From: a virus
Taxonomy: Duplodnaviria > Heunggongvirae > Uroviricota > Caudoviricetes
DNA length: 64,000 nucleotides
Reading direction: 5' to 3' (one strand)
IMG/VR virus record: IMGVR_UViG_3300042322_000140
Coordinates: 228-64,227 of that record
Shown here: positions 3,763 through 56,246 of the stretch, piece by piece
Layout of the letters: each line of letters opens with the position of its first letter
Numbering within the stretch: the stretch's first letter is position 1
Translations under genes and position numbers: made by a program
The notes under the pieces: generated by a model
What the model was told of the DNA's origin: nothing
The model's database searches: none
What the model saw: only the letters and a program-made list of their open reading frames with translations

Positions 3763-6700
3763 TTATTCTTCTTCTGATATTTCTGCCCAGCCTCCTTCTT
3801 TTAGATCATTTTCATCTATAAGGATAGCTATTGGTATTAATGACTCATCTTTATTATAGTAGTCATATGTATCTCTCAAAGATTTAAGGTTACCGGCATT
3901 CCATAAATCAAATGTAGGTTTTGCTCCAGTAACGTTCTTCAAGAAGTATATTTGTTGTTTTGTCATACCTTTAAACCTACCTCTATCTTCTACTTCTGTG
4001 TCGAATGCTCTGGTGATGTTAAATAAGTTTTCTAATTTTTGTACTCCTACTAGAGGCTCTTTTACAGAACTATAAAATTCACCAATTACCCCAAACTGTG
4101 TTGAAGATGTTTCTGTGGTTACCCTTTCTAACATATAAGCCGCAAATTGTGCTGCCCACATATCTTCTTCATCATCTGCCCAGTGTCCAACTCCAATTGT
4201 TAATAAAAACAATACTGAAAGGAATGCAAAATCAACCATTACTCTCCTGATGTTTTCTCTTTGTACATCATCACCATTTAAGTACTGGCTTTTTAGTTCA
4301 CCTAATGCAGATTTCATACCTCCTTTTTGTAAACCGTTGTTAAAATTTTGTACAAAAAAGTTATAAACTGAGAAGTAAGTACCCTCTTCCATTTGACCGG
4401 TTTGTAGGTTTAAGTGTCTTCTCTTGAACCTATTTGCTGCAGATATAGCTAACCACCCTTTGTGTGTCATTGCAAATCTACCTAGTACGTCTCTTTGCAT
4501 AGAGGTTCTTTCCTCGTTGGTAATCATACCATCAATTCTTTCTACAACTTTCTTTAATTTAGTTATAACCCCAATCTCAATGTTTCTAAAATCTTTTTGA
4601 AACTGCTCATCGTTAGTTCTACCCATATCTCTAGCTAAACTATCATAGTCATAAGCTACTGTTCCGTCTTTTGGTGACATGTAGTTGTACAGGGTTTTAT
4701 CTCTAAGTAAGTCCCATTGATTTGCCAGGTCTTTTTTAGTAGCTGACGGATTTACTGTTTTATATAAGGATTCAAATTTTTTAGAATCTACTAATTTACC
4801 TTCATATATTCTAAATCCATATAACTGAGAAAGCATTGCTTTAGACAAAGGTGCAAAGTTACCTGCTGTGTGTAGTATATACTTTGATTTAGCTAATACT
4901 CTAGGCCCTTTTGAGTACATAGAGTTTTCAAATTTATTACTTAAATCAAATACACCAAAATATTCTCCATATATAGATAGCTTAGATTTTGAGTCTATTT
5001 CTAAACTTTCCTTCATTGCAGGAAAAGCTATCTTTCTAAACTCTTTTGAAGCTAAATTCATAGATCCAGAATCTACATACTGACCAACATATTTTTCTAT
5101 AATCATAGATGCCTCAGCTGTAAGCCATGAAGTAACTGGTACTACAACATTCAATGCAAGAGAGTTATCTCTAATAAGTTTATGCAACATATTTATTATC
5201 TTAGTTACATCAATTTGCCCTAGTACTGGTACAGTTACTCTCCAGTTTTTTCTTTCTTTTATACCAAATAAATTATGGTCGTAGTAAGATTGAAACATTT
5301 TGTAAGTGTTTGTAGATGTAGCATCTTTACCTTCTGGATAAGCTCTCTTTAAAACTAAATCATTAAGTGTAGCAAACTCAGAGAATCTTTCTTTTCTAGC
5401 TTTATATAACTGAGATTGTTGTGCAAATAACATAGAGCTATAGAATAAATCTGTAGATACGTCTGTTTCTTCTTCTAATTTTTTCAAAAAGTACTTCGGT
5501 ATAATTTTCATGTTTGTTGCTTTTACTAAAGCCTCTCCCTCTACTTCTTCACCAAATGCTTGCTCATCTACTCTAAATCTAACAGCATCTCTCCACCACT
5601 CTTTTATAGTCCCTCTTTTACCTTTTATTAAATCATTAGCTTTTTCTAGGCCGGTTTTTGAAACTTGTGGTGCTAAGTATAAGTTGTGTGTACCTAGTTC
5701 CCCATAAGATCTTAAACTTTCTCTTTGGAACTCCATGTATTCCTTGTACAAACTAAATAGTTTTTGATTAGTTGTAGCTTGAATATTGCCTTCATTATCT
5801 AATATAGGGTTATTGTCAGCGTCTAACACAGGTCTAAAAAGGTCTACGAAGTTTTTATTCAAGTACTTACTAAGTTTAGGTTGTTTAGAACCACCTTCAA
5901 AATCCTCTTTGTAATTTGGGTTCTTAAACTTAATTTCCCCCATTTCGTAGTAAGAAAAATTATTACTAACTTTTACATCTCTTCTTTTGTTTAGCTCTGT
6001 TACTAATGTATACACATTCTGATTTCCATTTTTTAATTGGTCGTAAAAGTTTTGTAAACCTACTGGGGCAAATGCTTTATAATAAGGTGCTAATTTTGTC
6101 TCTGCATATTTTAATTTTGCTGCTGGAATATCATCCTTATTTAATTCAGACAATTCGTTTATCCCCACAGTTCTTAGTATTAATGCTTTGTGTCCCTCTG
6201 ATACTCTTAACCCTTTTAATACATCATCTAAAGCGTCTGAAAATTGTCTTGCTTTCTTAGCATTTTCAACTGTCATATTTTCAAGAGCAAATTTGTATTT
6301 GCCTTCAGCAGTTGTTATTCTTGCGTCAGCTAACATATCGTAGTAAGACTGATTAGGCGTAGACTCAGAAACTCTATTCTCCTCTGTACCTAGACTAACT
6401 TTATCTTTAAATATAGTGTATAGCTCTACGGCCATTCTGTCTATTTCTTCAGATAATTCTATAACTTTACTTCTTTGTTGCGTTGACATTTCTTCAGCCA
6501 TCGTGTTAGTAAAGTTTCTAGAGTCTTGGTATTGTTTTAATATAGATTTTCTAGATTGTAGTTTGTCTTTATAAGATTTTATTTTCTCTATCCAAGCTTG
6601 CTCTGAATTTGGGTCTTGGCTATATGAATCTATATAAGTCATCATGCTTTCTGATACATCAAAGTTATTCCAGAAATCATTAGAAAAACCTACGCTTGAG

Positions 6701-9486
6701 TTTAATATAAAAAATTCAACTGCTGCTTCTCTACCTTCTTCTAATTCAATCTTTTGAAGCTCTTCTAGAAATTTAGGTGCAAGTTTTTCAATATCTATTT
6801 TTTGCCCACCAGAAAGTCTTGCCTCTTCTTGCTTCTCAGCTAAAAAAGCTTGGTCTAATTTATTTATTTCAAAAGCTATCTTAGCCTCCTCACTTACAAC
6901 TCCTTGAAGTTCATAGTATATTCCAGATACTTCTATAGAGTTTTCAGATGGGTTTTCAACTGGTTTTAGACCTGTTTTAATATCCCCAAAACTTTCGAAT
7001 AAAGATTTTAAACTTTTTCTTTTTAAGTTTATAGCATCTAATTCATACTTATCTTGAGATGTGTACCTTGGTAAACCTTTTTCATTTTTAACTCTAGACA
7101 TAAGACTACCTAAGTCTGTAGACAATAGTCTAAGCTCTGTTTTAGTAGTGTCACTTATTCCAAGTTTTTCATATTTATCATCTCTATTTTGATAATAATC
7201 TTCTGTAAAACTTCTCTCCACTCTTGAATTAACTGCATCATTAACTTCTTTTTCATAAGCTTTTTCTGCTGCCTCATCTGTTATTTTTGGTAAGTCGTAG
7301 CTTTTTATACCCTTTATTATATCTTCGTCAGACATTGCTGTACCGCTATGAATCTTATAAGCTTGTAACTTTATATCTGTAATGTCTTTTTCAAAAGCGT
7401 TAAAATCATATAAACTTGTTACATAACCTCCTTTTTCCATAAATTTAGGTAGGTCAGCTTCTGTAAAACCAAGTTTACGAATTGTATCTTGAAACTGTTT
7501 TGCTCTTACTAAATAGCTTTGTTCTGCATCTAGAGTCATATCTGCAATAACACTCCCTAAAATATTAAGTAGTGGATCATGTGCATGTGTGATTTGACCA
7601 AATGCTGAATAAAATAATTGTGTATCTCTAGTAGCAGTAGTAACTGCATCTCTTAGTTTTTGTCTAACTTCGTCATCAAAACTGTGTCTTATCATTAACC
7701 TGTCTATGATTCTGTCTAGTACATCATTTTGTACGTTATCTGCAGCCCCGGTTACAGCTGATACTTTTACAACAACTGCGTTAATATCATTTACAATATC
7801 TGCTAAATCTGCATCCTCTTTTGATAGGGCTACTAATCTAGATAATACTGGTACAATGTTATCTTTCAAGCCTTGTAATACAATACCCTCTTCATTAGAT
7901 AAAGTCTCACCTCTTCTTTTAGATGTTTCAATAGCTGTAGATACATAGTCTGCTTGTCTTTTTGCTAAAGATATTAAGTCAAGTATTGAGCTTTTTGTAA
8001 TAGCTTTATCTAATGCTGAGTTTAACATCTGTATACTAGCTGCAGATCCTCTACCGGCATTTCTAAGACTTCTTTCTTGGTCAAGTAATGATTTTACCAG
8101 TCTTTTTACAATAACATTCTTAGTATCAAGAACCACGTTTCCGCTTGCTTGTTGCTGATACATTCTAAAAGTCTTAGTTTTAGTTTTGTCTAAGTTTAAA
8201 TACTTATTTACATCTTTGGTTAATAGCAAGTCCTCTACTTTTACCGTTAGTGCCTCTAAGTCAGTATAGAATGTATCCTTTACAACTACAGAATTAAAAA
8301 ACTTACCTAAAAGCTCAAAAATTCTTTCTATTATTGTTTTGTGTATTTCTGTTTTACCCTCTGTATTAAATCTTTCTTGTATAGCTTTTGCCAGTTCTTT
8401 ACCTAATATCTCTCTTCTAACTAAGTTTTCAACTTGTTCAGTAGACATACTTGGGTTTTCTCTTGTGTACAATTCTCTATAAGATTGTGAAAATTCTACA
8501 TAAGAACTGGTTTTGTTTATATTTCTTAATAGGCCCTCTATCTCAGCATCATCCCAAGTTTCAACTATGAAGTGTGAAGTCTCTTCTGCTAATCCATCAA
8601 TAGTCATCAGACCATCTTTGAATGCAATTACTTGTCTAGATACATCTAATAATGCTTGAGCTGATGGATCAACACCATTTCTAATATTATAGCTATTTAT
8701 GTAGCTGTTTATAGATGTCACCTTGACACCCATACTGTTTAAAAGATCCAAAAGATTCATTTTTAAAGACTCTTCATTAGTGTTCAAAGACTCTGTTGAG
8801 ATACCTGATGGTAATGCATCTTTTACTGCATTGTTTATCATAAGCTCTACAGCTTCATCTTTACTAACAGACTTTTCTAACTCTCTTAGAGTAGTAGCCC
8901 TGAAGTCTTCTAAAGACATTGATTTATTACCTACTTGTACTTTATTCTTGTTGTTCAGTAATTCAATTCTACCGTCTTTGTAGATCTTAAAGTTCTTTCT
9001 GTTTAGGTTGGTTTTGGCTTCCTCCTTTATGATCTGTTCATTTACTATTTGTAATGGCCCATGGTTACCAGCTGCTTGGTGGTAAGTTTTTCCATTTTCT
9101 ATTATTTTTTGATCAGAAAGAATATCACTTTTGATCATGTTGTTTATAAACCCTTCATAGCTAGCCGGGTTTGTGTTTGAAGACACTGAAACTAGGTTTT
9201 TAAACGTGTTTTCAATACCCATACCTATCTGTATATCCCCTCCTGCTGAGTTCTGTAAAGCTTCTTTGTAAGAATTGAACGTCACACCTTTATCAGAAAT
9301 AAAAGTGATAGGGCTTTGGTCGTTTATTTTTTCTGAATAAACATTTTTAAAAATAGACAAAGCTTCTTCTAAACTTTCTACATGTGGAAGTCTAGCTATT
9401 TGTTTGAATAGTCTACTTTCTTTACCTTCTAGGTCAAAAACGTTTTTTATACTACCGTTTTTATTATAATTAATCGTACAGCTCAT
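3763..9486 (-). CDS. Giant virion ejection/cargo protein C (1907 aa), crAss-like
   Basis: Last of three giant ORFs; LAEETSHF zincin-like motif; GRFAMTHKGW...EEGTY C-terminal motif; hydrophobic helix near C-terminus; only Cys is at residue 3. Confidence 0.7.
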   Translation of the reverse strand: MSCTINYNKNGSIKNVFDLEGKESRLFKQIARLPHVESLEEALSIFKNVYSEKINDQSPITFISDKGVTFNSYKEALQNSAGGDIQIGMGIENTFKNLVSVSSNTNPASYEGFINNMIKSDILSDQKIIENGKTYHQAAGNHGPLQIVNEQIIKEEAKTNLNRKNFKIYKDGRIELLNNKNKVQVGNKSMSLEDFRATTLRELEKSVSKDEAVELMINNAVKDALPSGISTESLNTNEESLKMNLLDLLNSMGVKVTSINSYINSYNIRNGVDPSAQALLDVSRQVIAFKDGLMTIDGLAEETSHFIVETWDDAEIEGLLRNINKTSSYVEFSQSYRELYTRENPSMSTEQVENLVRREILGKELAKAIQERFNTEGKTEIHKTIIERIFELLGKFFNSVVVKDTFYTDLEALTVKVEDLLLTKDVNKYLNLDKTKTKTFRMYQQQASGNVVLDTKNVIVKRLVKSLLDQERSLRNAGRGSAASIQMLNSALDKAITKSSILDLISLAKRQADYVSTAIETSKRRGETLSNEEGIVLQGLKDNIVPVLSRLVALSKEDADLADIVNDINAVVVKVSAVTGAADNVQNDVLDRIIDRLMIRHSFDDEVRQKLRDAVTTATRDTQLFYSAFGQITHAHDPLLNILGSVIADMTLDAEQSYLVRAKQFQDTIRKLGFTEADLPKFMEKGGYVTSLYDFNAFEKDITDIKLQAYKIHSGTAMSDEDIIKGIKSYDLPKITDEAAEKAYEKEVNDAVNSRVERSFTEDYYQNRDDKYEKLGISDTTKTELRLLSTDLGSLMSRVKNEKGLPRYTSQDKYELDAINLKRKSLKSLFESFGDIKTGLKPVENPSENSIEVSGIYYELQGVVSEEAKIAFEINKLDQAFLAEKQEEARLSGGQKIDIEKLAPKFLEELQKIELEEGREAAVEFFILNSSVGFSNDFWNNFDVSESMMTYIDSYSQDPNSEQAWIEKIKSYKDKLQSRKSILKQYQDSRNFTNTMAEEMSTQQRSKVIELSEEIDRMAVELYTIFKDKVSLGTEENRVSESTPNQSYYDMLADARITTAEGKYKFALENMTVENAKKARQFSDALDDVLKGLRVSEGHKALILRTVGINELSELNKDDIPAAKLKYAETKLAPYYKAFAPVGLQNFYDQLKNGNQNVYTLVTELNKRRDVKVSNNFSYYEMGEIKFKNPNYKEDFEGGSKQPKLSKYLNKNFVDLFRPVLDADNNPILDNEGNIQATTNQKLFSLYKEYMEFQRESLRSYGELGTHNLYLAPQVSKTGLEKANDLIKGKRGTIKEWWRDAVRFRVDEQAFGEEVEGEALVKATNMKIIPKYFLKKLEEETDVSTDLFYSSMLFAQQSQLYKARKERFSEFATLNDLVLKRAYPEGKDATSTNTYKMFQSYYDHNLFGIKERKNWRVTVPVLGQIDVTKIINMLHKLIRDNSLALNVVVPVTSWLTAEASMIIEKYVGQYVDSGSMNLASKEFRKIAFPAMKESLEIDSKSKLSIYGEYFGVFDLSNKFENSMYSKGPRVLAKSKYILHTAGNFAPLSKAMLSQLYGFRIYEGKLVDSKKFESLYKTVNPSATKKDLANQWDLLRDKTLYNYMSPKDGTVAYDYDSLARDMGRTNDEQFQKDFRNIEIGVITKLKKVVERIDGMITNEERTSMQRDVLGRFAMTHKGWLAISAANRFKRRHLNLQTGQMEEGTYFSVYNFFVQNFNNGLQKGGMKSALGELKSQYLNGDDVQRENIRRVMVDFAFLSVLFLLTIGVGHWADDEEDMWAAQFAAYMLERVTTETSSTQFGVIGEFYSSVKEPLVGVQKLENLFNITRAFDTEVEDRGRFKGMTKQQIYFLKNVTGAKPTFDLWNAGNLKSLRDTYDYYNKDESLIPIAILIDENDLKEGGWAEISEEE

Positions 9487-9506
9487 ATTTTTTTATTATT
9501 ATAATG

Positions 9507-9538
9507 CAAAATTAGTATTTTTATTTGTCATATCCAAA
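9507..9538 (-). promoter_or_regulatory. Bacteroidota sigma70-type promoter for giant C
   Basis: Minus strand TTTG-N20-TAATTTTG, 20 nt upstream of ATG 9486. Confidence 0.75.
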
Positions 9539-9544
9539 TACATT

Positions 9545-9574
9545 AAAAAGTTAAGGCTACTTTTCAGCAGCCTT
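9545..9574 (-). terminator. Intrinsic terminator after giant B
   Basis: Minus-strand RNA AAGGCUGCU-GAAA-AGUAGCCUU followed by AACUUUUU. Confidence 0.7.
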
Positions 9575-9580
9575 TTCTTA

Positions 9581-12500
9581 TTATTGACAGTTGAAATATT
9601 CATCGTCTATCTGTTTTAATTCTTCTTTAGAATAGTAATTTTTTGATGTCTTAAACACCTCTGGGCTATTTTCCAGGTATTGGTACTTGTTAAAGTTTAC
9701 ATCTGACAAAGGTTTTTCTATACCAGTTAGTTTAAAGTTAGGGTCTACTGAAGGCAGTTTGTTGTAAAACTTAACGTTCCCTGCTTCGTATATCATTTCA
9801 AAAACCCCTTGTGTTGTTCTTACAAATGTATCTGTTTCATTCTTTACAGCTAATACCCCATCTTCTATGTATCTGTAATCTCCGGATATTTTCTTAGCAC
9901 TTTCAGGATTATTTGCAAAAAACTCTCTTTGGCTTGTTTGGCTGTCATAGTCTTCAAATACTAACTCTTCTGATGTCATTCCTAAATTCAAATTCTTAGA
10001 TATTGCATCGTAGTCTGCCAAGTCTTTTTCAAATTCTAATGGGATAGACATTATTGCTTCCTCTTTAGATAAAGGGTCTTTTTCTACTAATTCTATTCCT
10101 TTTCCTGTAACCTTGAAGTACTTATTGTTTGTCTCTAGTATAAATCTATTGAAGTCTTTTACAAACTCTGTAACCAAATACTCTGGGCTAGATATTACAC
10201 TACCTAAACTATCTGTTGATACTTTTATAGGAGTCACTACTAATGGGAAGCCAAAGAACTTTTTATACAAATATATCTTAGCCAGCTTATCAGGGTCTAC
10301 TTCGTAATCTGCTACTTCAAGATTTGTTACTTCTTTTTCTACAAAGCTTCTTAAGTCTTCAATATTAGCTACTTCATCTGGTAACATTTCAGGATACTCT
10401 AGCATTGTATCGTAAAGCTCCTCTAAGCTCTGCTCCTCTGTTTGTCTATAAATATCCCCTTGCTTTTTGACTAAACCAAAATTATCAAACATTTGATACT
10501 CCGACATATCTGATTCAACAACTGTATCAAATTCATTATCTGTTTCTATTACAGCTGATTCTTCTGTGCTTGTATCAAATAACTCTTTATAAATAGTAGA
10601 GTAGTTAATTATATTTTCCTCAGTTGGTCCTGTTTCTAGTAGATTTTCCATAGCGTCTAAAAACGCAAGTATATCTTCTCTACTATGAGATAACACTTTA
10701 GTAGGAATGTCTCTTAGGTCAATACCGTTTGTCATAGCTTTCTTTTTAATAGAGGCTAATAATTTTACTACTGCATTAGGGTTTTCGTCCCAAACTTCTT
10801 CAGAAAACTCTTCGTTTATATATCTAATTTCCTCAGATAATTTAGAATTTTCTTCGTCAATCAATGTATTAGCTACAATGTTTTCTATGTCTTCTGCCTT
10901 ATCAACTAACACCCCGTCTTTTGTAACCTTTATATTAACTAATTTATGATTCTTAGCTATATTATCTACTGAAGATTTAAAGTTAGAGTCTTTTGCATAT
11001 TTATTGCTAAGATCTGGTAACAAATTATCTGAGATCTCTTCTTCAGAAATACCAGCTATATCTCTAGCTAACTCTGCTTCAACTATAAATGGGTTTGCTA
11101 TTTCTTGTTTTCCAAATATGTTTAAGCTTGTTCCAGTAAGTGTTATAAAGTTTTTATTGTATTCTATCTCAAAAGGTTCTGTATTTTTTAATTTTAAATA
11201 AGCTTCTTTTATACTTCTTTGTAAGTCTAATGAGCTCATTATTTTTGTTGCCTCATACTTATTAAACACCCCACCTCTTTGTAAAGATACTAAATTAAAA
11301 GATATAATACCAGATTTTGTAATAGCACTTTCTAATTTTTCTAAAAGCTCCGATGAAGAGTTTACTCCAAGTGCCATAGCTGCATTTCTTGCAACAACTT
11401 GGTCCTCTAATGATAAAGACTCTGTAGAATTATTTTTAAATTGCATCAAATCTTTAATCGAAGGCTCTCCGTTTTCATCATAACCATTTGGTGCAAGCTT
11501 TCTCGCTGGTCTTTGCATTTCAAAATCAGATGTCTTTTTATACCCAAGTGATGTGTAGAACTTTTCAAGTCCGGCATTAGTAGTGTTTTTATCTCTACTA
11601 GAAATAGTCAATACTGTACTTTTACCTATTGAGTCTGTGTATTTTAAAGCTGTATTAAAAGCTTCTCTTGCTCTACCCTGGCCTCTAAATTCTTCTGGTG
11701 TTTCTACCAATTCCATTTCTATTTTGCCAGTAGGTTTTTCAGTAATTGGGTTTACTTCATTTCTAAAATAAACTTTACTTCCATTTACATCTGCAACCAT
11801 TCTTTCTCCAGCACTTTTTATGTTTAGTTCAGAGACCCAAGAAGGTAATAATCCTACTTTTTGTTCTGCAAAACTCATCATATCATATACTTGGTTAGTC
11901 AAGATTTTAGCTCCCTCTGTATCACCATTTCTTCTAAGTACTCTAGCTTTATCTCTTAATTCGAAAGCTTTGTCGTTTACTCCAGAGAAATTAACCCAAG
12001 AGTTTTGACCTCTAGTCTCAGTTGTCATGGCAAGTCTAGCTAATGGAGAGTACATTCTAGAGTGTATATTCCATGCGTTTTCTTCTCCTAATGCACCAAA
12101 ACCATTTCCAAATTTAGCATGCCCAAAGAAATCGTGTACAAATCTAAATATGTCATTTGCTAATAAAGGCTCCCCATTTACATCTTTAAACTTAGTCTTT
12201 TGTAAAAGTGGGTTGTCTTTTCTTTGTTGAGCTGTTATAGCCTCATCCCCAAATCCAGACTCCGTTGAGAAAATCTTCATACGCTTATTACCACGTAAGT
12301 CAGCTATCATGTCGGCAGAGTTTTCATACGGCTCCGAATTATTTATCTCTGGTTTGTAACCATAGCTTAGTATTTTTTTATACTGGTCTACAGTCTCTTT
12401 TACCATAGCTTTGTAAGCCGCTTTTGTTTTAGTATCGTTTGGTGTAGGTTGCATCTTATCAAACTCAGCTGCTATACTTTTGCTATTTTCTTTATTTAAT

Positions 12501-15500
12501 TCCTTTATCGGTTCTATTGCATCAATGCTTATACCTTTCTCTAACATGTATTCATCAGCTATTTTTGATGCGTCCTCTAAAGGTGCATTAAATAACTTAT
12601 TACCATCTACTATAGAAAAGTTTACATAGCTGTCAGAATCATTAAATCTCTTTTTGGCTTCTTGGCTTTTCTCATATACTTCTCTAAAGTCTCCAAAATA
12701 CATATTTTTGACTCTTGCATAAGCACGTATGATATTCATACCACCAAAAGTTCCGGCATCTAAATGCACAGGTTTTCCGTCTTTTATGCCCCAATTAGCA
12801 ATATCTCCTAAATCACCATAGATTATGTCGTAGTTTAAATACTCTTCTAATCCATAGTTTTTAAGTACTTCAACCAAGTCTGGGTTTTTAGTATCAAAGT
12901 CTGCTTGACTATATCTGTATAGTTCCATAAGCATTACCTCTGCATCTTCTGTACCATATTGTTCACCATTCACTATGTTGTATATAGGAATTTGATCATT
13001 TGGTTCAAGTTGAGTTAACTTTTCAGCTATAACATAATTAAGGCCAGTTTCATAAACTTGTGGAAGGACACCTTTACTTATAAGCTCTTCATTACCTTCT
13101 TGCATGTTTTGAGCTAGTCCTCTGGCATTATTTGCTACTTTTAGCACCTTACCCTCACCTAAATCAAAAACAACTCTGTCAGAGCCTTGAGATAACTTTA
13201 CTAAGTTTGGTATATCAAATCTATCTCTTGCTACTTGGTTTACGTCATATTTATACCTAAGATAAGTACTATCTATACCTAGATTTTTTTGCATTCTGGA
13301 TCCAGATAATAATTCAGTGGCAGATGCTGATCCAAACTCTGCTAGTGTCATTGCTGATACTTGTTCAGCTGTGTAGTTTGATAACCCAACTGCTGCTTTT
13401 ATAGCACCCCAAACACTTTTTAACCACTCGCTTAAGCTTCCTTTTTTATTGCTTAACAATAATTTAGCCCCTTGATCACCTATTACTTGTGCAAGGACTT
13501 CATTATTAAACTCTTCTGAACCTTCTTCTAGATCTGGTTGTGTGTTTTTTACAATATCTATGTATTGTTGAGCTTCTTCTTTATTTTTTTCAACAAGAGA
13601 TAGTCCAGATTTATATATGTCTTCTCTGTTTTCTTTTAGCCAATCTAGATGTAAATGTCCAAATTCATGTATTGGTGTATCTAACCCCATTACATCGTTG
13701 TTCAAGTACACATCTCCTCTATAAGTAAAACCTGCAGTACTTAGTTTTATACCTTTTTCTAATAACTGTTTGCTAAATTTAATATCTTTGTTTATAGGCT
13801 CAACTAAAGTTTTATCTTTTATTGCAAATACAATTTGTCCTTTGTTACCTATATCTTCTCCTTTTATAATTTTTGCATTTTCTACTTCTTTTATAAAAGC
13901 GTCAAGTTCTTCTTTAGGTAATTCTATTCCTTCTGCTAGTAAAGAGTATCTAATTCTAGTTTTCCACTCTTTTAAATCAGATAGATTGTCTTGGTGAACT
14001 GTTAATAAACCTTGGCCAAAACCTACTTTTTCTACTCCCCATCTTTTATTCCAATTATCTAGGTCTAAAATATCTGGGCTTTTGATTTTAAATTCTTCTA
14101 TATTTCTACCAAAAACTCCGGCATATTTTTTTTGTACAGCAAAGTATTGTGTACCTTTATAGTTTGAATCAAACTCTCCATTTATGCCTCTGTATACTGC
14201 AGGTAAAGATTCTATTTTATATTCTCTTATTAAAGCTGCTGCTTCTTCTTTTACTTCTTGTTCTGTTGAGTTTTCTGATAAGTATACCTCTAAATATGAA
14301 CCATCCACTAAATTAACTTCCCAGAAGTCTTCTTCTGTGTTAAAAAATAAAGAGTCTACATCTTCTTGTGACATAGTTACTTGCTTAGCTATTTTTGAAT
14401 CTAAACCAAGGTTTACTAACTTAGCCTCTATCTGAGAGTTAGTCATTTGGAATACATTATTAGCTAACCCACTTAGTTCTAGCTTAGATATAATCTCTTG
14501 TGTTATCTCATTCTTAGAAGTCTCACTCAAGCTTTTAGAAAACATAGGTATAGACGACTTTAACTCAGAACGCATCTTATTTGTTATCTCAATATAAGGC
14601 TGTTCTGCTAAAGTCAGTTTGTCTGCGTTTATTTCTTGTGGTACATATTTTTCAAAATACTTTCTAGCTCCCCCTGCTGTGTTATCTAAGTCTGAATTAG
14701 ATAGTGTTTCTTCATCAACATACTCTACAAATTCTCCATTAACTCTTAAAACAAATCCATCCTCTTCTTCTGTAATTTCTACATTAGATTTTTCTGCAAA
14801 GTTAACTGTTTCTAATTTAGCATCTTTGTCAAATCTTTGAGCTTCTTTTTGTGCTACTTTTGTTACAATATTGTCATAGAAAGATTTCATACCTTCTCCA
14901 CCTACTTCTAGGTCTAAGCCTGAGTACTCTTTACCTTGACCAGTTGACTTTAAGTCTCTTATTTCATCTAAGTCATTTACTACTTTTTTTGCAAACTCTT
15001 TCCCAAAAAAAGATTCTAATTCTGCATCATCTCTTACACCTTTTGCACTTAAAATTTTACCGTCTTTTTTTACCTCGGCATTATATTTAAACAAACTACT
15101 TCCAGCATAGCTTATCTCTATAGCATCTACTTGATTAGATAAACTATACATACTAGAAGATTGCTGTCCTGTAGCAAAAGCTACACCACTGTACCCCTCT
15201 TGTGCTGCCATTTGTAAAACACGTCTTGTAGCTAAGCCAACCCATTGATCAGTATTTTTATAAGGCATTTCTTGTAAGCCAGACTGATCAATATCAATAA
15301 TATCTCTTTTTGCAGCAGCTATTTGTCTTTCTAAAGGTGTTACTTTTGAGTAGTAGTCTTGTATTACTCTAAAACCTTCTTGTTCAACACTTGGTAGATC
15401 TTCTACCCCAATAGTATTTTCAAGACTTTTTCTAAAATCTAATTCGTTTGCTCTTCTTTCTATAGTTGTATCAGCAACCTCTTTAGAGCCATAGTAGTTA

Positions 15501-16990
15501 TTTTGTCCTGATACTTGTCCATCAACATATATTCTATAATCTCCATTGTTCTCTTTTACTGCTTCTACTCCTGTAGAATCACCTAACTTTTTACCAAAAG
15601 AGTTTACAGATTTAGCTATAGTTACATTTCCATACTCATCAATATTTGTAGTATAGCCTTTACCATCATTATAAATAACTCTCTGATAAGCATCCTTATC
15701 TATTTTTTTCTCTTCTTTAATCTTTAAAAGCTCCTCTGTTAAAGCTTTATATTTAGCTAATGCTATATCATTTTTAATTTGTAATTTTCTATCAGTAAAA
15801 CCTATCTTACGACCAGCTTGTGCCCAATCAGATTGTATCTCATTTACTACCAAAACTTTATCACCATTTGGTAAACCTTTCTCGTTTAACCTTATGTGAG
15901 CCAAAATATTACCTTCATCCCAATGAGATGATTTATACTCTTCCTTAATATAAGGTGTTAAGTTATTTCCGATAGCTACTTTATCTCCAAAAATCTGGTT
16001 TATTTTTTCTATTTCTGTTCTTATTCTTGCATGTTCTTCTCTTTGTTCCTGGGTTGGTGCCTGCCCAAAGGGTATACTTAGTATAAGTTTTTTTTCAGAT
16101 ATTTTTATTGATTTATATTGCTCAATTGCAGAATTTAATTTAGTGTCTGGCATCGTCAATAATATCTCTCTATAGTTTTCTCCCCCCTTTAGTTGATAAC
16201 CTTGGTATTTTACATCTCCATCTTCTCTGTCTAATACTTCTTCAATTGCTGCTTTTTTTGCATTTTCTTGTGCACTATAATAATCAAAGTTTTCATCAAA
16301 AGTATCTTCATCTGTTAAACCTATTTGGTCTAGTGTTATATAAGGCATAATTAAATTACCTTGGCCGGAGTACTTTATGTTAAACCCATTACCGTCAAAC
16401 TCTGCGTCTAAGTCATTAATGTCTATTTCAGGCTTACCCTTACTAACATCAACAATGCTAATTTGATTTGATTTAATATAATCTTCTACAACAGAAGCTG
16501 GTATGTTACCTGCTCTAGTATTGTTTTCTGCTACATAGCTGTTTAAATAATCTGCAAGTCCTATCCACTCAAGTTCTTGATTTACATTTTTTACTCCACC
16601 ATTCTTTTGTGTGTCTGTAAGCTGTTTTAACCAACCTTGTGTGTTTTTGGGATTTAAGTCAGTCAAATTGTTGATAGCAGACAAAGCATTTGAAAAGTAA
16701 GTACTATCTGGAGCTATTCTACTAAACTTTACAGCGTCTAGATTTGTTGCTAAATCTTTTTCAGATTTAACTAAATTGTTTACTCTATTTTTTATAGATG
16801 TAACTTTTGCTTTCACCATATCCTTGAAGTCTTCAACTTCAGTCAAGGCATAAAGATTTAAGGCGGTCTTTTTATTACCGCCTGTTATATTCACTAATGT
16901 ATCAAATAATTTACTTCTACTGCCATTTGCAGCTTCCACAAAATCAATATCCCCATTCTCGTCTTTATAAATTCTACATTTTAAGCTCAT
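9581..16990 (-). CDS. Giant polyvalent virion protein B (2469 aa): EIQSD-type domain, ART-like, zincin, kinase-like, HDFFGH domain, GNAT
   Basis: Motifs ELEWIGL/GGENYREILL/EIQSDW, VYRG..YFA..YA, TPIHEFGH..NEVLA, KVLKV..YGDLGDIANWG..HLDAG, FVHDFFGH..GEENAW..ETRGQNSWVN, EFRGQG..LEKFYTSLGY. Confidence 0.75.
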   Translation of the reverse strand: MSLKCRIYKDENGDIDFVEAANGSRSKLFDTLVNITGGNKKTALNLYALTEVEDFKDMVKAKVTSIKNRVNNLVKSEKDLATNLDAVKFSRIAPDSTYFSNALSAINNLTDLNPKNTQGWLKQLTDTQKNGGVKNVNQELEWIGLADYLNSYVAENNTRAGNIPASVVEDYIKSNQISIVDVSKGKPEIDINDLDAEFDGNGFNIKYSGQGNLIMPYITLDQIGLTDEDTFDENFDYYSAQENAKKAAIEEVLDREDGDVKYQGYQLKGGENYREILLTMPDTKLNSAIEQYKSIKISEKKLILSIPFGQAPTQEQREEHARIRTEIEKINQIFGDKVAIGNNLTPYIKEEYKSSHWDEGNILAHIRLNEKGLPNGDKVLVVNEIQSDWAQAGRKIGFTDRKLQIKNDIALAKYKALTEELLKIKEEKKIDKDAYQRVIYNDGKGYTTNIDEYGNVTIAKSVNSFGKKLGDSTGVEAVKENNGDYRIYVDGQVSGQNNYYGSKEVADTTIERRANELDFRKSLENTIGVEDLPSVEQEGFRVIQDYYSKVTPLERQIAAAKRDIIDIDQSGLQEMPYKNTDQWVGLATRRVLQMAAQEGYSGVAFATGQQSSSMYSLSNQVDAIEISYAGSSLFKYNAEVKKDGKILSAKGVRDDAELESFFGKEFAKKVVNDLDEIRDLKSTGQGKEYSGLDLEVGGEGMKSFYDNIVTKVAQKEAQRFDKDAKLETVNFAEKSNVEITEEEDGFVLRVNGEFVEYVDEETLSNSDLDNTAGGARKYFEKYVPQEINADKLTLAEQPYIEITNKMRSELKSSIPMFSKSLSETSKNEITQEIISKLELSGLANNVFQMTNSQIEAKLVNLGLDSKIAKQVTMSQEDVDSLFFNTEEDFWEVNLVDGSYLEVYLSENSTEQEVKEEAAALIREYKIESLPAVYRGINGEFDSNYKGTQYFAVQKKYAGVFGRNIEEFKIKSPDILDLDNWNKRWGVEKVGFGQGLLTVHQDNLSDLKEWKTRIRYSLLAEGIELPKEELDAFIKEVENAKIIKGEDIGNKGQIVFAIKDKTLVEPINKDIKFSKQLLEKGIKLSTAGFTYRGDVYLNNDVMGLDTPIHEFGHLHLDWLKENREDIYKSGLSLVEKNKEEAQQYIDIVKNTQPDLEEGSEEFNNEVLAQVIGDQGAKLLLSNKKGSLSEWLKSVWGAIKAAVGLSNYTAEQVSAMTLAEFGSASATELLSGSRMQKNLGIDSTYLRYKYDVNQVARDRFDIPNLVKLSQGSDRVVFDLGEGKVLKVANNARGLAQNMQEGNEELISKGVLPQVYETGLNYVIAEKLTQLEPNDQIPIYNIVNGEQYGTEDAEVMLMELYRYSQADFDTKNPDLVEVLKNYGLEEYLNYDIIYGDLGDIANWGIKDGKPVHLDAGTFGGMNIIRAYARVKNMYFGDFREVYEKSQEAKKRFNDSDSYVNFSIVDGNKLFNAPLEDASKIADEYMLEKGISIDAIEPIKELNKENSKSIAAEFDKMQPTPNDTKTKAAYKAMVKETVDQYKKILSYGYKPEINNSEPYENSADMIADLRGNKRMKIFSTESGFGDEAITAQQRKDNPLLQKTKFKDVNGEPLLANDIFRFVHDFFGHAKFGNGFGALGEENAWNIHSRMYSPLARLAMTTETRGQNSWVNFSGVNDKAFELRDKARVLRRNGDTEGAKILTNQVYDMMSFAEQKVGLLPSWVSELNIKSAGERMVADVNGSKVYFRNEVNPITEKPTGKIEMELVETPEEFRGQGRAREAFNTALKYTDSIGKSTVLTISSRDKNTTNAGLEKFYTSLGYKKTSDFEMQRPARKLAPNGYDENGEPSIKDLMQFKNNSTESLSLEDQVVARNAAMALGVNSSSELLEKLESAITKSGIISFNLVSLQRGGVFNKYEATKIMSSLDLQRSIKEAYLKLKNTEPFEIEYNKNFITLTGTSLNIFGKQEIANPFIVEAELARDIAGISEEEISDNLLPDLSNKYAKDSNFKSSVDNIAKNHKLVNIKVTKDGVLVDKAEDIENIVANTLIDEENSKLSEEIRYINEEFSEEVWDENPNAVVKLLASIKKKAMTNGIDLRDIPTKVLSHSREDILAFLDAMENLLETGPTEENIINYSTIYKELFDTSTEESAVIETDNEFDTVVESDMSEYQMFDNFGLVKKQGDIYRQTEEQSLEELYDTMLEYPEMLPDEVANIEDLRSFVEKEVTNLEVADYEVDPDKLAKIYLYKKFFGFPLVVTPIKVSTDSLGSVISSPEYLVTEFVKDFNRFILETNNKYFKVTGKGIELVEKDPLSKEEAIMSIPLEFEKDLADYDAISKNLNLGMTSEELVFEDYDSQTSQREFFANNPESAKKISGDYRYIEDGVLAVKNETDTFVRTTQGVFEMIYEAGNVKFYNKLPSVDPNFKLTGIEKPLSDVNFNKYQYLENSPEVFKTSKNYYSKEELKQIDDEYFNCQ

Positions 16991-17010
16991 TTTTCTTAGT
17001 TTATTTTATG

Positions 17011-17042
17011 CAAAATTAGTACTTTTTTTTGTAAAAACCAAA
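17011..17042 (-). promoter_or_regulatory. Bacteroidota sigma70-type promoter for giant B
   Basis: Minus strand TTTG-N20-TAATTTTG, 20 nt upstream of ATG 16990. Confidence 0.75.
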
Positions 17043-17059
17043 TTTGTTAACTATTTTTA

Positions 17060-20000
17060 TTAACAAGGTTCATTTTTAGCATCATCAACATCAGATTGTT
17101 GATCTGTATTTAGTCTAAAATACTCATCTATTAAGGATTGTACTAAAGGGTGATCTGATAAATCAGACTCTTGTGTTGTAAGAGCTTCATCAAGTAACAT
17201 CATCTTATTAAAGATCTCTGTTGCTTTTTCTAAGCTTAGGTTTCCAGTAGCTATAGCATCTGAGTACCAATCCCTTTTTATTTCTACCATTTTGTCTAAG
17301 TTTATGATTGGCTTAGGTGAAGATAGTGGATTGTTTTCTATGTCTATCGCTAAAGAAGCTTCTGATACTAAATTCTCTTTTGTGTGTTCTGTTGACATCC
17401 ATGTAGATACATCTACTGTTTGTTTTACTTTATTTAGGTCACTTATTGCTCTTAGTAACGGTTCAGAAAAATTCCCATTCATGTCAACTAAAGTCTGTGC
17501 GTCTTCTCCAACATGGTATAAATTATAAGAGGCTGGAGATAGTCCATTTACTGCTAAAGTTTGATTGAACTCTAAAACTGCAGATCCTAAATTTTCAGTC
17601 TCCATTAACTTTTGTACTGCTGTGTCCCCTGCATTTGATGCCAACTCTTTTAATTGTATTGGGAAAGCTACTAAGTATTTACCTTGATTAAATATAATTA
17701 CTGGTAACCCAGTTTTGTTAAGGTGATTACTTATGTAATCTTTTCTTACATTTTTAGTGTTACCTTTAAGTACTAATTTTCCATCTTGTATATAACCGTA
17801 GTCAACAACAGCTTTTGGAGAAATATCAAAATACTTTATAGTACCACCTTCCATATTAAAGTTTGGTACACCTAAAAAGACATGTTTAATAAAACTTTCT
17901 TTTGGTAATTGTATGTCTATATCTGCTTCAGTTCCTAATCCTTTCTCTTTTACTATTTTTAAAGCCTCTTCTCTAATAAGTAAGAACTCTGAGCTTTGGC
18001 TAGTATTGTAGTTAGCTTTTAGATCACCAAATTTTCTACCTCTAACATCTGATACGTTAATCTTAAGTTGGTCTGATAATAATTTTTCTATCTTTAGAAC
18101 TTCCGGAGACATTTTACCATCTTGGTCTATCATTACATCTCTGTCTTCAAGATCTTGTATAGCCTCTTGGTATTCTAGAATTATCTTTTGATTATACTCA
18201 TCGGTCAAATCTAGACTAAAGGTTACAGTGTCTCCAGGTACCATGTTGTAAAGCTCCATAGGTGAATAATCACTAGAGTCTTTAAAGTCTGTCTCCATTA
18301 TCTCCCCCGTTTCATTGCTATAAACTGGCGAATACCCTGAATCTTTAGTAAAAGAGTTTTCCATGTAACCCATGTTAGCCTCTCTTAATACTTGCTCAAC
18401 CTCTGATCCTTTTTTTATAGTTAGGCTTCCACCTTTATCTATAATTATAGTAGCTGTATTACCGTCTCTGAATGTTAAGACAAATGTAGCACCGTACTTA
18501 ACATTTTCAGCAACTTCTTGTATTGATATGTCTTTTGCTGTGTTTGGTACAGTTACTGTTTTATTATTAACAACTTCTGTTTGTACAAAAGCTACTGTAT
18601 CTGCTAAATCCACTCTTGACAATAAGCCAGGAAGTGTCAAATGAGATATTGTAGTTCCAAATTTATTTCTGTTTATAAATACATTTTGGTAAACTTGTAA
18701 TACTTCTTCATTTCTAATAGCTTCCCCTGAATCGGTTTCTTTTGGCTCTTTCTTGGATATATTTACAATCTCTGTTTCAGTAAGTTCACTATTTATCTTA
18801 GGGTCTACAAACTGATTTACTATAATATCTTGTAATAACATATCACTTATAGATATACCAGTATCATTAGCTACATTTTCTAGTAACCTCCAATTAGCTA
18901 ATCTTTCGTTAAGCTCTTGTAATCTTTTTATCTCTGCTTTTTTCAAAGAAGGTCTTGTAGTTGGTGTTAGCCTATTCCAAGTATAAGGGCTTTTAAAAGA
19001 TATTGTTTTATTGTCAATCTTAGGGTCTGCTAAAGCTCTTATTGCTAAGTCTTCGTACTCATCTAACTCTTCCTCTGTCATCATAACAGGTACATCTGTA
19101 CCATAATAGTCTAAAAGGTATGGACTGTTTTTGATCATGTCTACAACAGTTTCTTTTATAGTCTTCTTTCGAACTTCTTTTTTGGTTGTCTGACCATTTT
19201 TAGGTGCATATTTCTTTTCAATAGCGTCTAACTTAGCTTTTCTTTCTTTTTCAAGGCTTTCTGTACTATTAGAACTATTTCCACCAACAAGATTCATCCT
19301 ACCGTTTGAGAAAGTAGCTAAATTAAATGATGGTGGTATTCTTATACCTGCATCATTTGGGCTAACTGCCATTATATGTTCCATCACAATATCTCCAAAA
19401 TACTTATTTATATTAAGATTTTGAGTATTTATACTATTTGGGAAACCCATTATTACTAACTTGGTAGCTCCTCTATGATTTATTTTACCGTCTATTAAAG
19501 CCTCTATTGAATTATATAAACCCTCTTTTGTAGTATTTACATTTGTGGTCCCTTCTGCCGAAGGTCCTGTATTAAGACCTGTTTTAAGTATCCCTTCTAG
19601 TGTTACTTCAGATGTTGTAAGATGTGATAAAAAGAAGAAGTCGTCTGGTAAACTTTCGATTCTATCTTTTAATTCTTTCTTGAGATTATCTTTTTCTTCT
19701 TTTGATAACTTGTTAAAGTCTTCTATATTTTGTATAGATGTACTTGGGGTATCAGAGTTTGATATTTTAGAATCATACTCATCATTTACTTTTTGTATTT
19801 CTGCTTGTTTTTTAGCTTCTTTTTCTTCTATTGTAGGCTTATTTATTTTAGCACCTTTTTCGTTATCAATAACTTCTTTTACTGGTTCTAAATTCTCTAA
19901 CCCTTGTACTATTGTATCTTCTGCTCTTTCTATAGAGCTTTCTGATAGCCCTCTTAAAAATTCTACAGTTATGTCGGTAGAGTTCTTGCCTCTTCCTAGT

Positions 20001-22639
20001 TCTGATACAATGTTTCTTCTTCCTCTAGCTCCTAATGTTGTATCAGAAAGTTGTCTAGATAAGTCTGCGTATCTTTTAAAGGCAGTTATTGACTTACCGT
20101 ACTCGCTTATTAATTTTTGTAATTGGGCCCCTTTTTGTGGGTCTACTTCACTAAATGATGCGGCTAGTTCTCTTACTTGTTTTAAAGTTCTTTCTCTATT
20201 TCTTATACTTTGTGCACTAATCAAAACATCATCAACATTCTTACCAAATGGGTTTTTCATGTTGGCTGTTTTTATCAGCATTGTATATTCTTTTGTTAAG
20301 GACTCTATGTTTTTATCTATCTCAGATATTCTAGATCTTATACCATCAGCTTTTGATAAAAATTCTTTTTTGGCATCTGTATCCACTGTTCCAAAAAGTG
20401 TCTTCTCTACTTCTTTATATTCTCTTTCTAGAGTTTCTTTTTCTCTATCTAGAACTTTTAATTCTTTCTCTTTCTTTGTAGCTTCTTTTTTAGTATCCTT
20501 ACTGGCTTTTAAAAGAATATCTTCTATGTTAAGAGTGTCAGACATCTCTTGACCTAAAATAGTCTCTCCAGTCTTCTGTTTTATAGCTGTTAATAAGTCG
20601 TTAGAAAAGTCATGTACTTTTTCTCCAAGAGTTAATTCATAAGCAACAGCATCTTTTACTTGGCTCATATTAAGACCTAAGTCTTTGAACTCTTCTTTTT
20701 CATTTTTTGTAAAATCTTTACCTAATATATACTCGGTATAATTTCTATTTTTCTCGTAAGATTTAGCTGTAGATTTATACTCCTTTACTAACTTTTCTTT
20801 TATATCTTCTGCCCCTTTTTCATCAACTCCGTACTCTTTCATAAGAACATCATTACCAATATTTCTAATACCAGTTTCTGTTCTTTCCATACTTTCATCT
20901 AGATAATCTAGGTTAAGTGCATGCGAGGCTTGAGCGATAATTGCTGATTGTCTAGCTAATTCCCCTCCTGTAAAATCTCCTTTTTTTGCAGCTTTGTCTG
21001 CACTTTGGTTAGCAGCTTGTACTCTACCAGAGTAGGCTAATGTTTCAGCCATGTTGTTAGGTGAATAGTACTTATCATAAAAGTCTACTACTTGGTTTGC
21101 TTTTATTTCTTCCCCTTTTAATTCACCTTTTAAACTACCATAAGTTTTCATATTAATACCAGTACCTGTAAGTAAACCTACAATCATACCGATACCAACT
21201 TCTTTCATCCCCTCTTTGGTACCATAAGTGTCAGATAACCCTTGTGTAAAAGCATCTCCAACATCCATAGTTGTACCTAAATACTTAGGGTCATATGTAG
21301 AGTTTATCCAATTTTTAGCAGTATTTGTTCCAACAGATTGCATACCTTCTTCCCATACTCCTTCTATAAGTGGACTTTTACCAATACCCCAAGAGTATTT
21401 GGCTACATTTTGTAATTTGCTAGCTGTTTTTGCTACCATTTTACCTGCTGACTCTTCTACCCCTATTCCAAAAAGCTTAGAATTAGCCCATTTAGATGAG
21501 GCTGAAAGTGGGCTTTTCATATCAAAAAGTCTACCTATAGTCATAAAATTACTTGAGCCTACAATTGCTAAGTTGAATCCGTACAAAGAGTTAGCAGAAG
21601 ATGTTAAATTATTGTTGAAATCTTGTAACTCTTCTTCACTAGGCTTTCTTCCGTTTTTTGTTTCAAAACTTTCTTCAAAGTTATCCTTCATTTCTCGTAT
21701 ATAATTACGAGCTTCCATACCTGCTTCAAATCCTGCAGATGTATATGTAAACCTAGCTACGTTAGCAAACTCTCCTGCTTTACCAAAAGCCGTTGCCATT
21801 TTTGTAGGTAATTTTGCATTTAGGTAAGTTTTTAATATTGGCTGTGATGCTAAAGCTTTAGCTTTAGACATTTCCCCATATGCTTTTAATCCTTTAGCTA
21901 TTTTTGCCTCTGCTCCTAAAATTCTAGTAACTTTTGGAGCTAATCTAGCAGCAGCTGTCCCTAAAGACATACCTCCTGTGGCCCAAGCCCATATAGCCTC
22001 TGAACCTATCGCTGATACTGTAAAAGCAGCACCACCTAATACGTCCTTGGCCCAAAAATTTGCTGTACCCATTGACTCAAAAAACCCCATATCTCTCTCT
22101 TCTTGAGAAACATAGTTTGGTAATTTGTAGTCTAATTTTTCATTTAAGTCATCTAAGTAGTTTGAAAAATCATTATCATAAGTTGCTCTAAAGCTTCCTT
22201 CTTTTATACCTTCATAAATACCGTCTACTACTCCTATTGTACCTCCTACTATTCCTGTACCTACTTGTCCAGCAAATTTAGTTATACCATTTAACCATTT
22301 CTCACTTGTACTTTGATTAGCTGCTGCATATTCTGCATTATCTCTTCCTGCTTTATATGTTGGAAATCTTGCTATGTAGCTTCCATCTCCTAATTTACCA
22401 TAAGCTTCCTCTACGTTATAGTTCTTTTCTTCCAGAGAACCTCTATAATCAGAACGCATACCAGTGTTACCCCAAAGACCGTTGTCTGGGGTAAACCATT
22501 CTGGATTTTGCGTAAACTTTTTGCCAGTAGTATAAGAGGTTCTTATACTGTCCATTACTTGATTAATTTGAGGATCTTGGCTTTTTCCTAAAGAGGATTC
22601 AACTGCTTGTCTCCCTAATTCTGCTGGGTTAAAATCCAT
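17060..22639 (-). CDS. Giant virion ejection protein A (1859 aa), probably membrane-inserting
   Basis: N-terminal Gly/Ala-rich hydrophobic segments, long coiled coils; only Cys is the C-terminal residue; first of three giant genes. Confidence 0.65.
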   Translation of the reverse strand: MDFNPAELGRQAVESSLGKSQDPQINQVMDSIRTSYTTGKKFTQNPEWFTPDNGLWGNTGMRSDYRGSLEEKNYNVEEAYGKLGDGSYIARFPTYKAGRDNAEYAAANQSTSEKWLNGITKFAGQVGTGIVGGTIGVVDGIYEGIKEGSFRATYDNDFSNYLDDLNEKLDYKLPNYVSQEERDMGFFESMGTANFWAKDVLGGAAFTVSAIGSEAIWAWATGGMSLGTAAARLAPKVTRILGAEAKIAKGLKAYGEMSKAKALASQPILKTYLNAKLPTKMATAFGKAGEFANVARFTYTSAGFEAGMEARNYIREMKDNFEESFETKNGRKPSEEELQDFNNNLTSSANSLYGFNLAIVGSSNFMTIGRLFDMKSPLSASSKWANSKLFGIGVEESAGKMVAKTASKLQNVAKYSWGIGKSPLIEGVWEEGMQSVGTNTAKNWINSTYDPKYLGTTMDVGDAFTQGLSDTYGTKEGMKEVGIGMIVGLLTGTGINMKTYGSLKGELKGEEIKANQVVDFYDKYYSPNNMAETLAYSGRVQAANQSADKAAKKGDFTGGELARQSAIIAQASHALNLDYLDESMERTETGIRNIGNDVLMKEYGVDEKGAEDIKEKLVKEYKSTAKSYEKNRNYTEYILGKDFTKNEKEEFKDLGLNMSQVKDAVAYELTLGEKVHDFSNDLLTAIKQKTGETILGQEMSDTLNIEDILLKASKDTKKEATKKEKELKVLDREKETLEREYKEVEKTLFGTVDTDAKKEFLSKADGIRSRISEIDKNIESLTKEYTMLIKTANMKNPFGKNVDDVLISAQSIRNRERTLKQVRELAASFSEVDPQKGAQLQKLISEYGKSITAFKRYADLSRQLSDTTLGARGRRNIVSELGRGKNSTDITVEFLRGLSESSIERAEDTIVQGLENLEPVKEVIDNEKGAKINKPTIEEKEAKKQAEIQKVNDEYDSKISNSDTPSTSIQNIEDFNKLSKEEKDNLKKELKDRIESLPDDFFFLSHLTTSEVTLEGILKTGLNTGPSAEGTTNVNTTKEGLYNSIEALIDGKINHRGATKLVIMGFPNSINTQNLNINKYFGDIVMEHIMAVSPNDAGIRIPPSFNLATFSNGRMNLVGGNSSNSTESLEKERKAKLDAIEKKYAPKNGQTTKKEVRKKTIKETVVDMIKNSPYLLDYYGTDVPVMMTEEELDEYEDLAIRALADPKIDNKTISFKSPYTWNRLTPTTRPSLKKAEIKRLQELNERLANWRLLENVANDTGISISDMLLQDIIVNQFVDPKINSELTETEIVNISKKEPKETDSGEAIRNEEVLQVYQNVFINRNKFGTTISHLTLPGLLSRVDLADTVAFVQTEVVNNKTVTVPNTAKDISIQEVAENVKYGATFVLTFRDGNTATIIIDKGGSLTIKKGSEVEQVLREANMGYMENSFTKDSGYSPVYSNETGEIMETDFKDSSDYSPMELYNMVPGDTVTFSLDLTDEYNQKIILEYQEAIQDLEDRDVMIDQDGKMSPEVLKIEKLLSDQLKINVSDVRGRKFGDLKANYNTSQSSEFLLIREEALKIVKEKGLGTEADIDIQLPKESFIKHVFLGVPNFNMEGGTIKYFDISPKAVVDYGYIQDGKLVLKGNTKNVRKDYISNHLNKTGLPVIIFNQGKYLVAFPIQLKELASNAGDTAVQKLMETENLGSAVLEFNQTLAVNGLSPASYNLYHVGEDAQTLVDMNGNFSEPLLRAISDLNKVKQTVDVSTWMSTEHTKENLVSEASLAIDIENNPLSSPKPIINLDKMVEIKRDWYSDAIATGNLSLEKATEIFNKMMLLDEALTTQESDLSDHPLVQSLIDEYFRLNTDQQSDVDDAKNEPC

Positions 22640-25265: not shown

Positions 25266-25285
25266 CTTTATCTTTATAATTTATG

Positions 25286-25317
25286 CAAAATTACAAATTT
25301 TATTTGTATCCTGCAAA
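25286..25317 (-). promoter_or_regulatory. Bacteroidota sigma70-type promoter
   Basis: Minus strand TTTG-N20-TAATTTTG, 20 nt upstream of ATG 25265. Confidence 0.75.
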
Positions 25318-25326
25318 TTAATTAAA

Positions 25327-56223: not shown

Positions 56224-56246
56224 GTTGGTTTTAGTCTATTGGGTTA

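Follow-up and report, generated by a model that had tools for sequence, protein, structure and literature searches.

A probable docking module at the N-termini of giant, cysteine-purged virion proteins in a marine crAss-related phage and its relatives

Why do two of three consecutive giant proteins of a phage begin with the same short segment, and why do the few cysteines of all three sit close to their ends? The locus lies in a 64,000-nucleotide stretch of DNA (positions 228 to 64,227 of IMG/VR record IMGVR_UViG_3300042322_000140, hereafter the window), which is part of a 128-kb phage record. The phage is marine and crAss-related; sequence searches including tblastn place it near the Cellulophaga phages phi4:1 and phi17:2, with Crassvirales more distant. 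Three genes, here called A, B and C, are arranged head to tail on the minus strand. They are separate genes, with stop codons and gaps of 69-94 nucleotides (nt) between them. We think it rather likely that the shared segment is a junction or docking domain of a series of head-to-tail giant virion proteins that are purged of cysteine, packed in the capsid and injected. It would mark every member of the series but the first and, judging from the sequences, probably pairs with the Cys-tipped tail of its predecessor via a disulfide. The genes and the two copies of the segment (the module) are the following.

17060..22639, minus strand: gene A, 1859 amino acids (aa), first in the series; no module; one Cys, the last residue; homologue of crAss001 gp47
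9581..16990, minus strand: gene B, 2469 aa, middle of the series; polyvalent-type payload; Cys only at residues 5 and 2468
3763..9486, minus strand: gene C, 1907 aa, last in the series; one Cys, at position 3; C-terminus acidic and Cys-free
16820..16990, minus strand: module of B, residues 1-57; Cys5 codon at 16976-16978; hidden Markov model (HMM) match with E 9e-17 (residues 4-57), E 1e-18 in the genome search
9322..9486, minus strand: module of C, residues 1-55; Cys3 codon at 9478-9480; HMM match with E 7.5e-24

The two N-termini are homologous. Residues 5-32 of B and 3-30 of C align without gaps exactly as the initial annotation of this DNA had quoted them, with 10 identities in 28 positions and a BLOSUM62 score of 42. 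This score was matched by 1 of 100,000 shuffles (P ~1e-5), and the best other 28-mer of the 6087 in A, B and C scored 25. The initial annotation saw no similarity further in, which has to be corrected: when 38 N-termini of B-type and C-type proteins (20 loci plus the window) are aligned, the homology goes on to about residue 55 and takes in two helices, with a 2-residue indel past helix 1. The Cys and Ser24 are invariant in this alignment and G21 and L26 nearly so, and C3 is invariant in 21 aligned C homologues. That A has no copy, as had also been noted, was borne out, the module HMM matching B and C only, both in the window and across the 128-kb genome.

An AlphaFold2 model of the first 57 residues of C has a mean predicted local distance difference test score (pLDDT) of 88, with strands at residues 4-7 and 13-17 and helices at 25-31 and 39-55. 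We are confident, on the strength of this model, in the prediction of a compact fold consisting of a beta-hairpin and two helices. A comparison of the predicted module with the PDB gave a best Foldseek E-value of 1.0 and a best VIA-align Z-score of 3.6 over 48,161 chains, small domains often matching unclearly in such comparisons. A Pfam scan of the 38 module sequences found nothing below E 0.02 and no match in common, and the ESM Atlas gave no usable match to C residues 1-57. In the literature searched, neither the module nor the terminal cysteines were found to be described, a provisional result as many subscription-journal articles lay outside the search.

The module is widespread and bound to the N-terminus. 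A profile search of 1.84 billion representative proteins at E <= 0.001 returned 1160 protein clusters, 340 of them at E <= 1e-10. Within the best 150 of the 1160, the match begins in the first six residues in 148 clusters and at residues 12 and 42 in two. All 119 module HMM matches from 81 loci begin at residue 1-4. In long homologues of C (2100-4100 aa) the module remains at the very N-terminus, and polyvalent payload domains are inserted behind it. In one of the proteins (P0249, 3639 aa) about 1700 residues of B-like payload split the module itself, with the Cys-hairpin at residues 1-19 and the helices at 1738-1772. It appears that Cys and hairpin must stay at a free N-terminus, because this insertion spares residues 1-19.

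A different N-terminus, with a Cys at residue 2-3 followed by G-G-[FL]-D, was seen in the C homologues P0041, P0043, P0045, P0046 and P0053 and in a B-type protein (L026, 2470-5694). The latter still has a Cys-ended protein upstream. This start may represent a second type of junction module.

Cysteine is almost absent from the bodies of the giants. A, B and C together hold 4 cysteines in 6235 residues and the three open reading frames (ORFs) upstream of A none, compared with an average of 0.96% in the other ORFs of the window. Those of A and B that lie at the C-terminus belong to these tails:

17063..17092, minus strand: C-terminal tail of A; its only Cys is the last residue, codon 17063-17065
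9584..9619, minus strand: C-terminal tail of B; Cys2468 is penultimate, codon 9587-9589

The same arrangement is found in relatives. Exactly one Cys, within the last six residues, is present in 80 of 81 A homologues, and the exception looks truncated; the Cys frequency in A homologues is 0.053%. Among the last 45 residues of A, the best conserved stretch is K-N-[KE]-P-C, and the B-type tails of relatives end in F-x-C-x or similar. About 100 C homologues, with identities down to 24%, were compared, and nearly all of them have no Cys other than one at residue 2-5. In the 74 long representatives taken from the global profile search, the first Cys always falls at residue 2-6; 49 of them have exactly one Cys and 21 exactly two, with the second at position -1 to -3 counted from the end. 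The tails of A and B had been described as acidic and as sharing ID-EYF. They do read as quoted, but neither the acidity nor the ID-EYF is conserved in relatives.

The Cys codons were also considered as a junction signal at the nucleotide level. We rejected this candidate because the spacing varies, both TGT and TGC are used, and the partner gene in crAss001 lies on the other strand.

The central observation concerns the coupling of the module to the protein upstream, for which loci were picked by homology to the body of C and not by their tails. Of 45 non-redundant module proteins, 43 follow an ORF that has a Cys among its six C-terminal residues, while the background is 7 in 85 (Fisher p 1.7e-24). 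The initial annotation had proposed a socket that captures the acidic, Cys-tipped tail of the preceding giant; the coupling to a Cys-ended partner is thus upheld, but the acidic tail is not a conserved property. Both unpaired cases come from gut phages in which other ORFs occupy the junction; at one of these loci the intervening ORFs include mobile-element-like ones, and a Cys-ended ORF lies further upstream. At the loci examined, the numbers of N- and C-terminal cysteines are matched (1+1, 1+2+1 or 1+2+2+1). In phages without B, A ends in Cys and C then begins with Cys, and one locus (L026) has two tandem B-type proteins, each with both cysteines. In crAss001, gp47 ends in a Cys (one Cys, at -3) and is encoded on the opposite strand, which argues that the coupling lies between the proteins rather than between adjoining genes.

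In gut csAssE-like contigs (L031-L080, for example L043 and L063), several kilobases of unrelated ORFs separate the B-type gene from the C-type gene. From their translations these look Bro-N-like and HNH-like by eye, no family search having been run. The giants of these contigs tolerate 3-4 internal cysteines, more than their marine relatives.

Natural fusions provide a further line of evidence. They involve a conserved part of B, which is the portion that always precedes C and is free-standing as gp037 in phi4:1:

9584..11125, minus strand: conserved C-terminal domain of B, residues ~1956-2468; matched by tblastn and blastp to phi4:1 gp037 and by blastp to the A-fusions L015, L020 and L023

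In these three loci, blastp shows A and the B C-terminal domain in one protein with a single C-terminal Cys and no module. Three other proteins (P0248-P0250) have a B-like payload and the body of C behind one module with one Cys. The fused forms thus carry neither the module nor the cysteines at the former junction, and because both are dropped, module and junction cysteines occur only at chain breaks. The fused proteins have their parts arranged just as the cysteines would imply. PF18760 and PF18838 occur among the fused relatives, and GNAT is also present in homologues. Fusion of A/B/C-type trios in some crAss-like phages has been reported (bioRxiv 10.1101/2020.03.07.982082). The C-terminal domains of A and B gave no convincing homology to each other, the best blastp match of the last 600 residues having E 0.03 over 16 residues.

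The proteins concerned are virion components in related phages. Record annotation lists the phi4:1 homologues gp035, gp037 and gp038 and phi14:2 g065-g067 as virion proteins by tandem mass spectrometry, and crAss001 gp47, gp49 and gp50 have been seen by mass spectrometry (PMC10172136). Homologues of C are phi4:1 gp035, phi14:2 g065 and crAss001 gp49. Residues 1-1092 of C, module included, match phrog_37651, whose annotation says no more than 'virion structural protein'. The phage proteins matched by parts of B are annotated as large polyvalent protein, lysin or RelA/SpoT. Other searches were empty: megablast of the region against phage records, sequence searches of the PDB with the three giants, and a Pfam scan of the same proteins, B having no Pfam match at E < 0.03.

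The pattern reaches into Crassvirales. By blastp, A matches a gp47-like protein of Kehishuvirus 'tikkala' with E 1.5e-12, and C matches the gp49-like protein of the same phage, which is 99% identical to crAss001 gp49, with E 9e-20 and phi14:2 g065 with E 9e-7. In phi14:2, g067 (1797 aa) has no Cys other than its last residue, the polymerase g066 (2180 aa) none besides Cys3 and Cys2179, and g065 (1421 aa) none besides Cys3. In crAss001, gp49 combines a single Cys, Cys5, with just the helical half of the module. The terminal-Cys rule is also seen in DAC15, crAss002 and four Suoliviridae, with a few more internal cysteines. Here crAss002 has an A-type gp32 and a fused B-C protein, gp33, and the Suoliviridae have fused A-B giants and a C-type protein.

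In crAss002 gp33 (L092, locus 7270-20007) an internal Met followed by S-C resembles the other N-terminal Cys starts, and translation probably begins 32 codons downstream of the annotated start. The giants of Suoliviridae cr6_1, cr52_1 and cr109_1 (L085, L086 and L087) contain 26-70 in-frame stops under table 11. Stop-codon recoding is known in these Suoliviridae crAss families, and the terminal-Cys pattern was read through the stops.

B occupies the slot that belongs to the virion RNA polymerase in phi14:2 and crAss001. The polymerase motif DFDxD lies at position 1361 of g066 and at position 1483 of the gp50-like protein from 'tikkala'. None of A, B and C contains the pattern D-[FYLIVM]-D-x-D, and blastp of g066 or gp50 against B gave no match. 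The chain of the phage studied here therefore seems, from its sequence, to lack the virion polymerase of the middle slot.

How could such a junction work? In the model that we favour, the module of the downstream protein would recognise the flexible Cys-tipped tail of the upstream protein, and perhaps also the domain preceding that tail. Once the particle meets an oxidising setting, the two lone cysteines would form an intermolecular disulfide. The product, A-S-S-B-S-S-C, would be a pseudo-polyprotein with fixed order and 1:1:1 stoichiometry, equivalent, we infer, to the fused polyproteins of some crAss-like phages. It would pass through the tail as if it were one chain, and the host cytoplasm would then reduce the bonds and free the three parts. 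Docking, disulfide, ordered ejection and reductive release would all be steps of this model; disulfides are seen elsewhere in crAss001 virions (PMC10172136).

Several observations weigh against this model. Conservation of the tails in relatives is poor except at the Cys and in a short local motif, so that a specific 'plug' is weakly defined. In crAss001, gp50 has Cys5, one internal Cys and a C-terminal Cys as far as -9 from the end, and phi4:1 gp037 falls below the threshold of the module HMM though it has a Cys at residue 4. Second, internal copies of the module fold that lack the Cys occur in P0117, P0149, P0183 and P0248; the fold may therefore have another binding role. The cytoplasm in which phages assemble is reducing and the gut habitats of crAss phages are anoxic, so the disulfide would need to form late or inside the particle.

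Other explanations for the same features can be set against the docking model. The module could be an N-terminal capsid-targeting or portal-binding signal, with the terminal Cys tethering each protein to another virion component such as the portal or an inner capsid protein. Its strictly N-terminal position is that of known targeting peptides, and the phi4:1 and phi14:2 homologues are virion components, as their records state. However, A is packaged without a module, and the upstream Cys-free cargo ORFs (see below) do not have one either. The matched cysteine numbers also speak against such a signal, as does the joint loss of module and cysteines in fusions, which would not be expected if every protein required an address tag for itself. 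We regard this explanation as unlikely, and the shared packaging signal that the initial annotation offered as its second idea is disfavoured, at least as a general signal, by the lack of a module in A and the cargo ORFs and by its loss in fused forms. It is possible that B and C are packaged piggy-back on A via the junction. A variant that keeps the module as a junction has the facing cysteines bind a metal together with neighbouring acidic or His residues, forming an intermolecular zinc clasp. Such a clasp would work under reducing or anoxic conditions, an Asp, Glu or Asn often stands beside the tail Cys, and many C-type modules have a conserved His (P-H after helix 1). With only one conserved Cys per partner, no His in B-type modules, acidic residues that are not conserved and no known metal-binding pattern, we consider it still less plausible than a targeting signal.

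The cysteines could, on the other hand, be left over from an ancestral polyprotein that underwent proteolytic or intein-like processing, or act as signals for such processing, the module being the conserved start of the downstream cleavage product. Cysteine is the nucleophile in inteins and Ntn hydrolases. Cleavage of the fused forms into their components has been suggested in print (bioRxiv 10.1101/2020.03.07.982082). We hold this to be very improbable, given the separate genes with their stops, 69-94-nt gaps and own promoter-like motifs, and given that the fused forms have neither Cys nor module at the former junction. Moreover, the Cys stands at residue 2-6 after M-x(0-4) and not at residue 1, intein blocks are absent, and 55 aa are too small for a splicing or hydrolase domain, whose blocks take ~100 aa or more. 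Finally, a chance or compositional likeness of two N-termini in an AT-rich genome might have been suspected from an original alignment of merely 28 residues and 10 identities. It is refuted by the shuffled controls (P ~1e-5), the 340 clusters at E <= 1e-10 and the confident fold prediction, and its probability is close to nil.

The features described here can be compared with known systems. One is the virion RNA polymerase-associated triad of crAss-like phages (phi14:2 g067/g066/g065 and crAss001 gp47/gp50/gp49), which forms the same gene block, is borne by the virion and follows the same terminal-Cys rule; the difference is that its middle slot is filled here by a polyvalent-type payload that lacks DFDxD. 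In N4-like phages, the ejected giants (Schitoviridae gp50/gp71, gp51/gp72 and gp52/gp73) are Cys-suppressed, which has been explained by their passage through the oxidising periplasm (PMC11445570). Near-zero Cys is the trait in common (here internally ~0.05%, as compared with ~1%). The N4-type proteins have no conserved Cys, whereas here one Cys is kept per facing terminus together with a dedicated N-terminal domain. This retention of a Cys at the facing termini and the adjoining N-terminal domain are what is new with respect to the N4 type.

A likeness of B and the long C homologues to polyvalent proteins (Pfam LPD, ART-PolyVal) is suggested by the payload domains PF18838, PF18760 and GNAT in homologues and by the matches annotated as large polyvalent protein. 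The difference is that B is the middle link of a three-protein series with junction features at both ends and that the module lies outside Pfam. In polyketide and non-ribosomal peptide synthases, short C-terminal and N-terminal docking elements order separate giant proteins, and fused and split versions exist. The analogy is one of logic only and we claim no homology, as those docking domains are unrelated in sequence and setting and act non-covalently. The internal proteins of T4 carry a capsid-targeting sequence of ~10 residues that is cut off by the prohead protease and is present on every targeted protein. It is likewise a short N-terminal element common to several packaged and injected proteins, but in our case the element is a folded 55-aa domain that is absent from the first member and coupled to the C-terminal Cys of a partner.

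The surroundings of the three genes show a few further features. Three Cys-free ORFs at 22641-30268 (874, 702 and 950 aa) match phi4:1 virion proteins and are probably injected cargo as well. Two ORFs at 49531-57908 (2230 and 553 aa) are also Cys-free, and neighbouring tail and muzzle ORFs have 1.5-6% Cys. A promoter-like 14-mer, TACTAATTTTGCAT, occurs ~15-30 nt before the start codons of B and C:

17008..17021, minus strand: TACTAATTTTGCAT, upstream of B; contains a Bacteroidota -7-like TAnnTTTG
9504..9517, minus strand: exact copy of the same 14-mer, upstream of C

A copy with 2 mismatches (25283-25296) precedes the 874-aa ORF, and the window holds 13 matches with up to 2 mismatches where 2.3 are expected. 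Judged by its sequence and placement, the 14-mer is probably a phage promoter. Each giant would then have its own promoter, and B would be a separate transcription unit, since the motif precedes them. Directly after the B stop, a GC-containing, imperfect hairpin with a T run behind it (9555-9580, minus strand) looks like an intrinsic terminator between B and C.

The wider proposal is that Crassvirales and their marine relatives link their injected giants, the virion RNA polymerase included, head to tail by disulfides, each prepared by a dedicated N-terminal docking domain, obtaining a redox-cleavable assembly that is packaged with fixed stoichiometry, threaded as one chain and released by reduction in the cytoplasm. 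We consider the chances of this being right or wrong to be about equal. The crAss-like phages are the most abundant viruses of the human gut, and the model addresses how their ~0.6-0.7 MDa polymerase-associated protein would be loaded and injected. It covers the order, stoichiometry and release of injected proteins and can be tested at the bench. It would account for a trio that is separate in some phages and fused in others, and for the slotting in of new payloads, such as the polyvalent-type B, as an extra link. The module signature with its 1160 clusters serves to find injected cargo proteins in metagenomes.

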